From IMG/VR virus record IMGVR_UViG_2579779105_000001: 64,000 nt of DNA; one strand, 5' to 3'. This DNA is from a virus (lineage: Duplodnaviria; Heunggongvirae; Uroviricota; Caudoviricetes). The notes beneath the pieces are model-generated. The model ran no database searches and was not told where the DNA came from. It worked only from the letters and a program-made list of their open reading frames with translations. A program made the position numbers and the translations under genes. Below, in pieces: positions 8,478-55,694 of the stretch (positions are counted from its first letter, which is position 1; every line of letters begins with the position of its first letter).

Positions 8478-9476
8478 ATGCAATCACTGAATACTGTTAC
8501 GGATCGCTTCTCCCTGGTAGAGAAAATCCGCAAACACACACCGCAGAACAACCGAAATTACGTCATTCAGTCGGTACGAGACACATTCAACTCGCCAGAA
8601 ACAAAAGAGCGTATCGCGCTGGGTGAGATGTATGGTTATTACGGTCATGGTCGCCGGGCGATGCACTATAACAAAACGAAAAGCCTGAACTTGCCGGAAG
8701 TCTCTGTTGTGATGGTAGATGGGAAGGCTGTTGTATTGGAGAACGTGCCGTCAAACAGGACTATCGACATTTCGATTGACGACAACGGCATTGTTACTCA
8801 TACGCAGGAAATACTGGATACAGACACCGGGCGTATTGTTCAGGGCATGATTAATTCTGGTGCTGGTGGTTGGTCGTGGGCTACATCTGGTCCAGATTCA
8901 TCGGTATCCCTGGTAAAGTCTTTCCACGGCTTTGATTACGTAACTGTGCCTAACTATATCAGCCTCGACAAGAAAAGCCTGATGCTTGAAGCAGCAGAAG
9001 AGCGCGATGCGGCTATTCATGCAGCACTTATCGAACAAGGTTTTACCGATAACGCTGCTACGGATCTGGTTCACCACTTTTCAGCAATGAAAAACCAGCA
9101 AGCCATGCTCGAATCTGCACATCGTGAAGCCCTGGAATCAGAATTGATGCTCCTTGAAGTGGAAAACATACAGCTTCGAGATAAGCTGCGCGCTCAAACA
9201 GCGATGATGGAAAGCCAGGGGGAAAATGCAAAGCAATGCCGCCGGATTTTGCGTGACGCTATCCAGGAAATGCCTGTTTTTATCAGCGCAGAACAGCGCC
9301 GGGCGCTCTGCCGTATGCAGTCTGAAGATGATGCCCGCATAGTGGCTGCGATGCTTGAATCTCTTGGGGCAAATGCTACTTATGGCTTACCGGTATCAGG
9401 CAAGAAAGAACCAGAGTTATCACCGAAGGAGAACAAAAACACCACCCCGTTACTCTTCGTTTCGCGACGGGCATAA
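8478..9476 (+). CDS. hypothetical protein, possibly prohead protease/scaffold
   Basis: 332 aa with GGAGGG SD; C-terminal coiled coil; position after the possible portal. Confidence 0.3.
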   Translation: MQSLNTVTDRFSLVEKIRKHTPQNNRNYVIQSVRDTFNSPETKERIALGEMYGYYGHGRRAMHYNKTKSLNLPEVSVVMVDGKAVVLENVPSNRTIDISIDDNGIVTHTQEILDTDTGRIVQGMINSGAGGWSWATSGPDSSVSLVKSFHGFDYVTVPNYISLDKKSLMLEAAEERDAAIHAALIEQGFTDNAATDLVHHFSAMKNQQAMLESAHREALESELMLLEVENIQLRDKLRAQTAMMESQGENAKQCRRILRDAIQEMPVFISAEQRRALCRMQSEDDARIVAAMLESLGANATYGLPVSGKKEPELSPKENKNTTPLLFVSRRA

Positions 9477-9490
9477 CCGTCGAATGAAAT

Positions 9491-9506
9491 CAAATTTCTA
9501 ACATAG
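9491..9506 (+). promoter_or_regulatory. operator-like motif AAATTTCTAACATAG
   Basis: Member of the recurrent TTTCTAACA(T) motif family, upstream of the RepL-like gene. Confidence 0.45.
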
Positions 9507-9593
9507 TGTATTTATATACACTGTTGATTCTGTCCGATGTGATCGAGTAGGATCGCGGTCACTGCTCCGGTAGCGACTGCCAAAAAAAGCAAA

Positions 9594-9616
9594 AGCCGCT
9601 GAGAAGCGGCTTTTTG
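9594..9616 (+). terminator. rho-independent terminator
   Basis: AGCCGCT-GAGA-AGCGGCT hairpin followed by TTTTT. Confidence 0.6.
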
Positions 9617-9676
9617 GTGTATAAATCCACTGGCATAGATTTATACGGTAGATAGATTTTTTCACGGAACTATCTG

Positions 9677-10639
9677 GTGAATATTTTAAATTCAGTTTCA
9701 GTAACTTTCAACACTTCTGAGTATAAAAACAACACTGAATACCACAAAAAAATCAAAGGTCATCAGTTGAGTTTTTTTGCTCGTCATATCGGTCTTCTTT
9801 CCCCTTCACATAGCGCCATTATTGCCGAGTTCGCCAACCTGGCAGGGGCTACCGATGAATACATGATCCGTCGCTCATATGCTGATATGTCCGAGATTAC
9901 AGGACGCAGTATTTCTACTGTACGCCGGGCATTTGCTGAAGCGACGAAGTGCGGAATGCTTGTTAGGCAACATCAGGTAGCGAATAACAATGCCCAGGTG
10001 TGTAACGTATATCGGTTTACGACACAATTTCTCCACTTCATTCATGTAGCAATGGAGATAGGGGGTAAGCAGGGCATCAAATTTGCCAACGCCACAAAAC
10101 TGGTTAAGCAGTTGATTTCAAAGGTTCGTTATTTTTTTGAAACTGGGAACCCCCTGTTCAAATTGAACAAGTCCCCCCATGTTCAAAATGAACAGCCAAT
10201 AGAAAATAAGAGTCACTCTATAGCAAAAAGAAGAGAAAGATCATGCGCGGTTCAGCCAAAGGCTTCACCAGCAGATAGTTCTCAAGCGGATAATGGGGTG
10301 CTGGATAAAAAACCAGTGATCAGGGAAGAACATACCAACCGCTGCCTGGCGGCGGCAAAAGCGAGAGCTGCAAAGCGTCGTTCAGACGAGGGGCACGCAA
10401 AACGGCAGGCTCTGTATCGTACCGCTGAAAAGTTGGCAAAAAAATTTGCATGGATACGTAGTGCCGCTACCGCAGTGAATAAGCCTAAACAATCCAGCGC
10501 CCTGGATTTCTCAATGGATTATTCTGGCTCCCAGGGGTGTGCAACCATTGGTGAAGCCTTTGACCTGATGAAACAGCGTGGCTATCGGTCTGAATTTGAC
10601 CGGGAGGATTGGTCAATCCCTGCGGGATTCAGGGGATGA
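9677..10639 (+). CDS. HTH DNA-binding protein, possible lytic replication initiator (RepL-like)
   Basis: GTG start; HTH-like segment GRSISTVRRAFAEATKCGML; tandem palindromes inside the gene; operator upstream. Confidence 0.3.
   Translation: MNILNSVSVTFNTSEYKNNTEYHKKIKGHQLSFFARHIGLLSPSHSAIIAEFANLAGATDEYMIRRSYADMSEITGRSISTVRRAFAEATKCGMLVRQHQVANNNAQVCNVYRFTTQFLHFIHVAMEIGGKQGIKFANATKLVKQLISKVRYFFETGNPLFKLNKSPHVQNEQPIENKSHSIAKRRERSCAVQPKASPADSSQADNGVLDKKPVIREEHTNRCLAAAKARAAKRRSDEGHAKRQALYRTAEKLAKKFAWIRSAATAVNKPKQSSALDFSMDYSGSQGCATIGEAFDLMKQRGYRSEFDREDWSIPAGFRG
10150..10194. repeat. two tandem copies of C-run + TGTTCA-N3-TGAACA palindrome (origin-like)
   Basis: CCCCTGTTCAAATTGAACA and CCCCATGTTCAAAATGAACA are adjacent inside the RepL-like ORF. 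Confidence 0.45.
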
Positions 10640-10693
10640 CCTGTGTGCCTACAAAACATCCCAATGATCGGCAAATGCTCGCTCGATGATTTG

Positions 10694-10724
10694 TATTAGA
10701 AAATTAATTTGCTGTTTCTAAATC
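10694..10724. promoter_or_regulatory. pair of operator-like motifs (TATTAGAAAAT / TGTTTCTAAATC)
   Basis: Variants of the recurrent motif at the head of the immI-like region. Confidence 0.35.
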
Positions 10725-10929
10725 GGAATGTATGATCTGCATCATCGACTGAAGTCATCCATTGCTGAAATTTTTAGTTGATCTTCCATGTTTTCAGGCT
10801 TATATTCATGCCGTCGTAGCAAATTCTGCGACCAGGTTTGACAGCCTGAATGTTAGTGCGGACAACCGCAGATTTCCGATATTGCGGTATTTTTGTGTCC
10901 GTAAACCGCGTTACGCCCGAATTATGGTG

Positions 10930-10995
10930 GGGCGTGATGGGGAGGCTTCGGCCTGCTGGTTTCACTAACGCCAGTCTGTCAACCCTGTCACGTCC
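10930..10995 (+). ncRNA. candidate c4-like antisense RNA
   Basis: GGCTTCGGCC tetraloop hairpin, then CACTAAC and CTGTCAA, complementary to GTTAGTG and TTGACAG found at 10838-10858 and again at 11006-11041 over the downstream SD; boundaries approximate. Confidence 0.3.
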
Positions 10996-11052
10996 TGCCA
11001 CCTGTTTGACAGCGGGTAGCAGGTTGTTAAACCTGTTAGTGAGGCCGTAACT

Positions 11053-11277
11053 ATGGTTAATGCCAATCCTTGCTCACGTCCAGAATTCATCTGGCGTTTC
11101 CACTCCCTGCAAAAACACTGCGATCACTTCGCAATTGCCGCAACCGAAAAAGAAGCCCGTTCTCTGATCCCTGATCAGCATGGTGTTCTTACTGGTCGTT
11201 TCTCTACTTCCCCACAACCAAACACTAATCCCTGGTATCGCAATATTACCAATCCCAGCATTGCGGAGGCACACTGA
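11053..11277 (+). CDS. small Icd-like protein
   Basis: 74 aa; GAGG SD overlaps the putative antisense target; a paralogous sequence lies near 46470-46640. Confidence 0.4.
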   Translation: MVNANPCSRPEFIWRFHSLQKHCDHFAIAATEKEARSLIPDQHGVLTGRFSTSPQPNTNPWYRNITNPSIAEAH

Positions 11278-11393
11278 TGGATATCTGCCTTCATGAATGC
11301 TTTTAACCGGATGATGTCGGAGGCTGAGCACCGAGGAAAACGCTGGTATCACCCCAAAATGGGGCAATTCCAGGTGATCGGTTGGGGAGGTGA

Positions 11394-40245: not shown

Positions 40246-40286
40246 AATGTATACCGACTCTGTTTTGTTCCGAGCGGTAAAATAAT

Positions 40287-40300
40287 ATGTTAGAAAACTA
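40287..40300 (-). promoter_or_regulatory. operator (reverse complement = TAGTTTTCTAACAT)
   Basis: Exact 14-mer, intergenic between two leftward genes; weaker half-site at 40308-40318. Confidence 0.5.
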
Positions 40301-40343
40301 AAATCAACGTTCTAACGTAATTTTGAGTGCGTAAATGATTTGA

Positions 40344-45021: not shown

Positions 45022-45189
45022 AAGTTGATGAGAGCAAAGAGTTCAATGCCCAGCTCAAACAACGCCAGGACAGTGAAAAACAGGACATATAGCAACCCAA
45101 TTTCTGTATCGGATTGCTGGTGGATTGCACTAATTGCGACAAGCATCATGACCTCCTGATATAGCGTCTGAAAAAAGTATCTTCATTTT

Positions 45190-45222
45190 GTGTTAGAAAA
45201 TCAATTTTGATTTTCTAACATG
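45190..45222. promoter_or_regulatory. palindromic double operator TGTTAGAAAATCAA-TT-TTGATTTTCTAACA
   Basis: Perfect 14-bp inverted repeat made of the recurrent motif, between the divergent ref-like gene and the leftward accessory cluster. Confidence 0.6.
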
Positions 45223-55635: not shown

Positions 55636-55650
55636 AAAATGCACCCATTT

Positions 55651-55682
55651 GTGTTAGATAATTAACGCGTATTTTCTAACAT
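55651..55682. promoter_or_regulatory. pair of operator-like motifs (GTGTTAGATAA ... GTATTTTCTAACATAAA)
   Basis: Inverted pair of the recurrent motif directly upstream of hrdC. Confidence 0.5.
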
Positions 55683-55694
55683 AAATGGTGAGAA

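Follow-up and report, generated by a model that had tools for sequence, protein, structure and literature searches.

A candidate P1-type lytic origin of replication inside the repL gene of a D6-like phage-plasmid

The DNA analysed here is a stretch of 64,000 nucleotides (nt) from a virus of the Caudoviricetes (IMG/VR record IMGVR_UViG_2579779105_000001; hereafter, the window), and its repL gene (Table 1) encodes a homologue of the lytic replication initiator of phage P1. The segment 10150-10264, in the middle of repL, is probably (at a rough probability of 0.7) the core of the D6-type lytic origin (oriL), in which RepL dimers would bind two dyad-symmetric units, the A-rich stretch next to them would melt, and the replisome would be loaded. 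Judged by the predicted structure, the codons in which this core is embedded specify a disordered linker of the initiator itself, and the flanks from about 10093 are probably accessory to it. For the D6 type, comparison of sequences establishes the homology of repL, a layout collinear with P1, constraint at the level of DNA, and covariation of the half-sites.

The palindromic units and the gene that contains them

The window is a phage D6-like phage-plasmid of the P1 family; its region 9450-10700 has 97.8% nucleotide identity to Escherichia phage D6, a P1-like plasmid prophage. The counterpart gene, D6_20, has the head protease gene on one side and the immI region on the other, and its annotation reads "lytic replication protein, similar to P1 repL". 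An earlier reading of the window, made from its sequence only (the sequence-only reading), had called the open reading frame (ORF) RepL-like, and the searches agree with it. RepL of the window aligned with P1 RepL in tblastn (27% identity over amino acids 28-320, 92% of the query, E 7e-15), close relatives carry the precomputed Pfam annotation PF26868 (Phage_P1_RepL), and the N-terminal helix-turn-helix (HTH) as well as the C-terminal W-x-IP-x-GFRG end are conserved with the P1 RepL family. By these marks, the product of 9677-10639 is a true homologue of P1 RepL. The PF26868-type family is small (29 representatives at 50% identity, among 1.8 billion proteins searched). RepL of Firmicute plasmids (PF05732) did not match at E ≤ 1 and shares the name by coincidence.

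That the ORF encodes an HTH protein, as had also been claimed, is borne out by a weak match to Pfam HTH_36 (amino acids 41-93) and by the AlphaFold model. This model, computed from a shallow alignment of 9 sequences only, has a confident N-terminal winged-helix domain (amino acids ~20-157) with a per-residue confidence score (pLDDT) of about 80-88, a stretch of pLDDT <50 predicted to be disordered (amino acids 159-214), and a long helix (amino acids 217-265). The stretch of low pLDDT coincides with the codons of the units, the A-rich stretch, and the GC-rich dyad described below; the origin would therefore sit in the part of the gene where constraint on the protein is probably weakest. Searched with window RepL, NCBIfam gave no match, PDB sequences only artefactual matches to designed repeat proteins and a weak DeoR HTH, and Foldseek against PDB none below E 0.005, its matches being to generic winged-helix/MarR folds only.

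The two adjacent palindromes on which the sequence-only reading was built were found again, both in the sequence and by a repeat search. Unit 1 reads CCCCC-TGTTCA-AAT-TGAACA and unit 2 CCCCCC-A-TGTTCA-AAA-TGAACA, and the two form a 20-nt direct repeat (90% identical) with 25-nt spacing. The exact dyad TGTTCA-N3-TGAACA is present in the 64 kb at these two sites only; allowing up to one mismatch, three matches were obtained where 0.19 were expected, a number that none of 100 shuffles reached. The units lie mid-gene (codons 159-173 of 320), as originally described, but in different reading frames, and encode the peptides PLFKLNK and PHVQNEQ. From this arrangement and the comparisons below, the two dyads are probably the sites where the RepL initiator binds.

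Beyond unit 2, the 48 following nt are 67% AT and 71% purine, compared with 54% for both in the whole gene, and 10199-10238 is the least stable 40-mer in the gene body (−44.6, against a window mean of −54.5, sd 3.9). The A-rich stretch ends in GATC (10239-10242). GC-rich dyads are found at the same place, past the A-rich stretch, in several other lineages, including P1 (TCCGGC-GGT-GCCGGA). In the left flank, a match to the IHF consensus (10105-10117, minus strand) is one of only 5 in 64 kb, and 10113-10130 is identical in L004, a relative whose RepL has 63% protein identity to that of the window. No DnaA boxes were detected in or near the repL of the window, and the box of P1 is not conserved.

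Taken together, these elements suggest the following course of events. Once repression is lifted, repL would be transcribed and translated, and RepL dimers would bind, via the N-terminal winged-helix domain, to the two TGTTCA-N3-TGAACA dyads, the C-runs probably belonging to the recognised unit. The bound complex would then melt the adjacent 49-nt A-rich stretch, the opening probably being bounded by the GC-rich dyad beyond, and a host (or phage) helicase and the replisome would be loaded for theta replication.

Collinearity with the P1 lytic origin

The location of the P1 lytic origin inside repL, on which the sequence-only reading had drawn, is in line with the P1 record, where the whole of repL is annotated as "region containing oriL", and with an 87-bp fragment described in PMC9948254. 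In that study, eleven synonymous changes in a 43-bp A/T-rich element (AT2) abolish RepL-driven plasmid amplification, mutation of the IHF/AT1 site or of two DnaA boxes leaves amplification unaffected, truncated promoter-less fragments that retain AT2 work in trans, and RepL plus the fragment T5 suffices for amplification in E. coli lacking P1 (PMC9948254). The C/G-rich sequence before AT2 is remarked on there, and the place where RepL binds is not assigned (PMC9948254; Huan et al, 2023). No paper mapping RepL binding was found in the literature from 2023 onward.

The smallest active P1 fragment, T5, was mapped here from the primer table of PMC9948254 to nt 471-557 of repL (87 bp). It contains CCCCTCCCCC-TGTCA-GGA-TGACG, followed by AT2 ending in GATC and then by most of the GC-rich dyad. 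Another unit, CCCCC-A-TGTCA-AAA-TGATA, lies just upstream of T5 and abuts a perfect DnaA box; P1 therefore has a two-unit array of the window type, with one of the units inside its minimal origin. In the nucleotide alignment, window 10172-10266 is collinear with T5, and unit 2 is the counterpart of the P1 unit retained in T5. From 10172 to 10270, the elements shared with P1 are, in order, the C-run, the dyad, CAATA..AATAAG.AGTCAC...AAAAAG...AAAGATCA, and the GC-rich dyad, and this four-element collinearity holds despite the fact that the proteins are only 27% identical. Because a functionally mapped fragment is collinear with it, the core of the window is, on this alignment, the equivalent of the P1 lytic origin core. 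The comparison with P1 repL/oriL thus favors the intragenic origin that had been suggested, its function in the D6 type being extrapolated from P1. The sufficiency of RepL and the 87-bp fragment in trans and the need for the A-rich stretch are known from P1 alone, from the work of others.

Conservation and covariation of the core

Thirteen RepL genes were compared: those of the window and P1 and eleven further fetched genes, whose products have 19-63% protein identity to window RepL. Nine of the eleven directly follow a gene of ~330-340 codons in the head protease position, as in D6. All 13 genes contain two units 23-25 nt apart, the leader of which is a C-run or, in the Enterobacter group, CGGTC/CGGAC, and CA-N3-TG is invariant in the dyads of all of them. 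The 48 nt after unit 2 are, across the 13 genes, 60-75% AT and 58-75% purine on the coding strand, GATC follows unit 2 by 41-44 nt in 6/13, and a GC-rich dyad lies beyond the A-rich stretch in several. P0016, searched against viral contigs, yielded no related loci.

In unit 2, the dyad is TGTTCA-N3-TGAACA in the D6 type, TGATCA-N3-TGATCG in the Enterobacter group (L003 and L005), TGCTCA-N3-TGAACA in L007, TGGTCA-AAG-TGACCA in L010, ACGCCA-AAA-TGGCGT in L011, GATCA-N3-TGATC in L012 and L013, and GTCA-N3-TGAC in P1, L006, L008, and L009. The different initiator-site sequence proposed from the window alone is thus partly upheld: TGTTCA does differ from the TGTCA of P1, but by this comparison the D6 half-site represents the lineage's own version of a single motif common to the family (C-run + NNNCA-N3-TGNNN) and not an unrelated site. 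Complementarity within the 13 dyads of unit 2 amounted to 66 of 78, compared with 52.1 ± 3.2 when right halves were shuffled among lineages, and none of 20,000 such permutations reached 66; the fourth pair from the spacer was seen as T:A, G:C, and A:T. Thus, both half-sites change together, as would be expected of a site read by a co-evolving symmetric dimer.

This two-sided covariation would suit the stem of a hairpin equally well, either in repL mRNA (affecting translation or stability) or in unwound single-stranded DNA (as a signal for priming or loading), and in the RNA fold predicted for 10105-10275 both dyads are paired, although the z-score (−2.14) is mild. The arms of the P1 type, however, comprise only 4 bp around a 3-nt loop, which is too weak for stability, and P1 T5 is active without a promoter. 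Moreover, a hairpin leaves unexplained why the asymmetric C-run leader is conserved within the unit, and a role of the dyads as hairpins is therefore considered unlikely.

A comparably small chance is given to the possibility that the segment is an origin but its dyads are bound by another protein of host or phage, with RepL acting elsewhere, for instance on the A-rich stretch. In the TGATCA lineages, GATC could serve as the target of Dam/SeqA (units of the Enterobacter group hold four GATC sites), the P1 study assigns no binding place to RepL, and the only mutations with a demonstrated effect in P1 are those in AT2. Against this stands that the half-sites differ among lineages that are all in Enterobacterales, which favors a co-evolving partner encoded by the phage, and that repL is the only gene physically locked to the sites. 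In addition, RepL alone with T5 suffices in a host lacking P1, and the most divergent recognition helix (P0019, RTASRH) pairs with the most divergent site (CGCCA).

Several comparisons speak for selection on the DNA itself. Between the repL of the window and that of an E. fergusonii relative (63% protein, 70% nucleotide identity), conserved residues were encoded by identical codons at 27/30 positions in the core and at 84/166 elsewhere (Fisher p = 3.6e-5), and the same test on five other gene pairs gave p from 1e-6 to 0.015. An unbiased scan in blocks of 25 conserved codons returned 10151-10264 as the most constrained (24/25 identical; permutation p = 0.00035). Each C-run rests on a CCC codon, and repL has no others than these two; CCC accounts for 10% of proline codons in three neighbouring genes. 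The half-site bases are invariant in 21 distinct D6-lineage sequences; where the core does vary among them, it does so in the spacer of unit 1, the base between the units, the leader, and the middle of the A-rich stretch. Among 111 D6-like plasmids, the 154-nt core was at least 99% identical in 66 records, and an adjacent 154-nt control in none. By these measures, selection in the D6-lineage core acts on the DNA rather than on the protein.

The units of most lineages are in frame, at a spacing of 24 nt, and encode a PPxQxD peptide repeat (e.g., PPCQND/SPCQDD in P1). This would be consistent with the palindromes being a by-product of a PPxQxD-like peptide repeated in a proline/glutamine-rich linker, with selection on the protein. 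In the D6 lineage, in contrast, the units are 25 nt apart, out of frame, and encode unrelated peptides, and the DNA repeat is retained nevertheless. Furthermore, synonymous sites are frozen and rare CCC codons are used, the P1 fragment functions as non-coding DNA, the region is predicted to be disordered, and synonymous recoding of P1 AT2, adjacent to the units, already abolishes origin function. It is thus scarcely credible that the palindromes merely reflect the peptide.

One Salmonella plasmid, pSa1423-90k (NZ_MK356557.1, L015), had been considered as an intermediate variant and was dropped, its repL being broken by indels in the core. At 670-870 of L015, indels in homopolymer runs split repL, unit 1 is destroyed, and unit 2 is damaged, the gene being either a decayed lytic replicon or the result of a low-quality assembly. 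Short RepL fragments comprising only the N- or the C-terminal part are present in databases (phrog_8046 and phrog_7057; P0005, P0014, and P0017). These fragments suggest that the C, A, and T runs of the core are prone to frameshifts.

Several points weigh against the proposed RepL-bound origin core. The mutations made in P1 covered AT2, IHF/AT1, and the DnaA boxes, leaving the C/G-rich unit outside the mutated set, and unit 1 is dispensable in P1 T5. As stated above, covariation that preserves a dyad is expected equally from a hairpin. The boundaries of the core for the Fisher test were picked after the motifs had been seen, only the scan being unbiased, and in the lineages with in-frame units, which also encode the conserved PPxQxD repeat, selection on the protein is possible. 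Within the D6 lineage, the core is conserved, yet the least variable part of repL is 9704-9783. Finally, the GC skew of the window, a profile that mostly tracks gene orientation, lacks an inflection near 10.2 kb. This last point would also fit a conserved block with another role in cis (as internal promoter or regulatory site), the D6-type origin lying elsewhere; given that the block aligns in order with the P1 core, whose function has been mapped, and that no plus-strand promoter-like site was found inside repL, such a placement is very improbable.

A broader proposition extends RepL binding from the window to the whole family: the units would be RepL recognition sites throughout, placed in the codons of RepL's own linker, initiator and site would co-evolve within ~45 nt, and the TGTTCA, TGTCA, TGATCA, TGGTCA, and CGCCA lineages would represent mutually orthogonal RepL/oriL pairs. 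The chances of this proposition being correct are judged to be about even.

Regulatory surroundings of repL

Table 1. Positions of repL, the elements of the candidate origin, and the putative regulatory features around the gene (window coordinates; a dot denotes no strand).
Feature	Position	Strand	Basis
repL, lytic replication initiator gene	9677..10639	+	320-amino-acid ORF, GTG start, D6_20 identity, P1 RepL homology
Unit 1, candidate RepL box distal to unwinding element	10150..10169	.	C-run 10150-10154 and perfect dyad 10155-10169
Unit 2, candidate RepL box adjoining unwinding element	10173..10194	.	C-run 10173-10178 and perfect dyad 10180-10194
A/purine-rich stretch, candidate DNA-unwinding element, counterpart of P1 AT2	10195..10243	.	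Composition, stability, alignment to P1 AT2
GC-rich dyad AGCC-AAA-GGCT	10254..10264	.	Part of 19-nt block (10248-10266) found unchanged in relative of 63% protein identity
Left flank, counterpart of P1 AT1/IHF, probably accessory	10093..10149	.	AT-rich, T7 run, IHF match
Operator-like motif AAATTTCTAACATA upstream of repL, candidate site for D6-type C1 repressor	9492..9505	+	Match to multi-copy motif
Second operator-like motif, just after repL stop codon	10692..10705	-	2 mismatches
Possible repL promoter TTGATT-N18-TAGGAT (putative)	9524..9553	+	Both hexamers kept in L004, spacer diverges
Candidate antisense RNA unit over repL start and leader	9581..9711	-	Promoter-like site, terminator, fold

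Operator-like sites flank repL on both sides (Table 1). They belong to a motif, AATTTTCTAACATA, of which the window contains 19 sites with up to three mismatches (7.65 ± 2.68 expected), including three inverted pairs 20 nt apart that resemble bivalent P1 operators. In its 14-nt form, A(A/G)TTTTCTAACA(T/C)A, it is present at 9492-9505, 10692-10705, 40286-40319, 45189-45222, and 55650-55683, among other sites. It is probably the operator of a D6-type C1 repressor. In P1, according to its annotation, C1 operators are found before the replicon and 3 nt after the repL stop; the P1 consensus, ATTGCTCTAATAAATTT, had no match with up to three mismatches in the window. The sequences first guessed to be operators, AGTGKATTTATAYAC and GTATAAATCCAC, were not or only marginally enriched and were dropped as multi-copy operators, as was GTATAAAT, which occurs at the repL locus only. 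The possible repL promoter scores 8/12, which is under the threshold of the promoter scan, and the scan gave no clear promoter for repL.

The start and leader of repL are overlapped by a candidate antisense RNA unit, comprising a promoter-like site (TTGAAA-17-TAAAAT, 9711 to 9683; 10/12 matches) and a terminator hairpin with a T-run (9614-9591, minus strand), both also present in L004. The predicted RNA of ~96 nt folds into three stem-loops (minimum free energy −31 kcal/mol, z = −6.1), the middle one being the dyad GTATAAATC-N10-GATTTATAC at 9619-9646. This dyad had been regarded as an operator and was reinterpreted as an RNA stem from the predicted fold. The upstream operator of the sequence-only reading would thus rest on the motif match at 9492-9505, the dyad at 9619-9646, also upstream, being no less likely to form a stem of an antisense RNA. 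The P1 lytic replicon is annotated with an antisense promoter as well, which partly controls it, and the predicted RNA may, by analogy, be the D6-type counterpart of that control. The longest stretch of repL that is invariant among the 21 distinct D6-lineage sequences (80 nt, 9704-9783) is close to the 5′ end of the gene, immediately downstream of the candidate antisense promoter; it holds an imperfect 25-nt inverted repeat (9719-9743/9758-9782).

At the 3′ end of repL, another perfect dyad, AATCCC-TGC-GGGATT (10615-10629), is located in codons for the conserved IPAGFRG end, and L005 and L007 have similar ones; the dyad may merely reflect the conserved peptide. The immI region follows repL at 10800-11297, with c4-a1b1 targets (10800-10852), the C4 antisense RNA (10920-11005), and an icd-like ORF (11053-11277). 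Compared with its counterparts in phage D6 and in about 100 plasmids of the D6-like type, the antirepressor gene (Rha/Roi-like, D6_18) is short of roughly 570-590 bp in the window, the junction being at 11282-11297. An Rfam scan located three tRNA genes, all on the plus strand, at 19738-19810, 19816-19888, and 21907-21979.

Significance and comparison with known replicons

The P1 lytic replicon has been in use since about 1990 in P1-derived cloning vectors and, lately, as an inducible signal amplifier. The comparison prompted by the D6-type palindromes predicts the recognition site of RepL, which the 2023 oriL study left unassigned, and brings out a three-part core common to the family (two dyad units, A-rich stretch, and GC dyad). 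The natural variants of the half-site would ease testing of this prediction and are possibly useful as orthogonal parts. If true, the family-wide interpretation would identify the target of RepL in the classical P1 lytic replicon and would yield several amplification modules that are inducible and orthogonal. For the window alone the result is an ordinary one, the placing of the probable lytic origin in a common phage-plasmid of the D6-like type, whose hosts are E. coli and Salmonella. As far as can be judged from the sequences compared, the element is of an already known kind, the P1-type intragenic lytic origin, here with a variant half-site, no DnaA box, and units out of frame.

With P1 RepL/oriL, the window shares a homologous initiator (PF26868) that has kept the C-terminal IPxGFRG motif, an origin inside the gene at the same aligned position, and the succession of two C-run and dyad units, A-rich stretch, and GC dyad; in both, GATC closes the A-rich stretch about 42-44 nt past unit 2. 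Sites that resemble repressor operators are likewise found on either side of the gene in both, and so is an antisense promoter in the replicon, which in the window is a candidate one. The two systems differ in the half-site (TGTTCA in a perfect 6-3-6 dyad, compared with TGTCA, 4-3-4, in P1), in the spacing of the units (25 nt, and hence out of frame, compared with 24 nt), and in the DnaA box, which is lacking in the window, whereas TTATCCACA abuts unit 1 in P1. Unlike in P1, kilA is absent from the arrangement in the window, repL has the head protease gene in front of it and not the immI region, and the operator consensus is another one.

In plasmids, iterons lie outside the rep gene as direct repeats, usually in five or more copies and usually dependent on DnaA. 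Replicons of this kind (e.g., P1 oriR/RepA) resemble the RepL system in having a winged-helix initiator and repeated sites beside an AT-rich unwinding element. Here, in contrast, two dyads lie inside the gene, and DnaA boxes are dispensable in P1 oriL.

The phage lambda origin has a layout of the same kind. There, too, the origin lies within the gene of its own initiator, O, between the N-terminal DNA-binding domain and the C-terminal part, and its dyad-symmetric repeats have an A-rich centre and a period of 20-24 nt. In ori-lambda, four dyad repeats of the type TCCCTC-AAAAC-GAGGGA, compared with two in the RepL family, are followed by ACAAAAGACACTATTACAAAAGAAAAAAGAAAAGATTA, and the A/G-rich stretch of ~40 nt after the repeats is strikingly like that of the RepL family. 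A palindrome is reported beyond the A/G-rich stretch in lambda. No RepL counterpart is known for lambda P, which brings the helicase. A comparison of window RepL with lambda O by hhalign gave a probability of 0.2%, which leaves homology unsupported; the models of the O N-terminus (TIGR01610/Phage_rep_O) had no NCBIfam or Pfam match to window RepL, and the only O-like match was a weak one in PHROG (phrog_391, E 1.8e-7). Membership of RepL in the O family is thus unsupported, and the resemblance would be one of operation: by analogy, RepL/oriL would work like O/ori-lambda.

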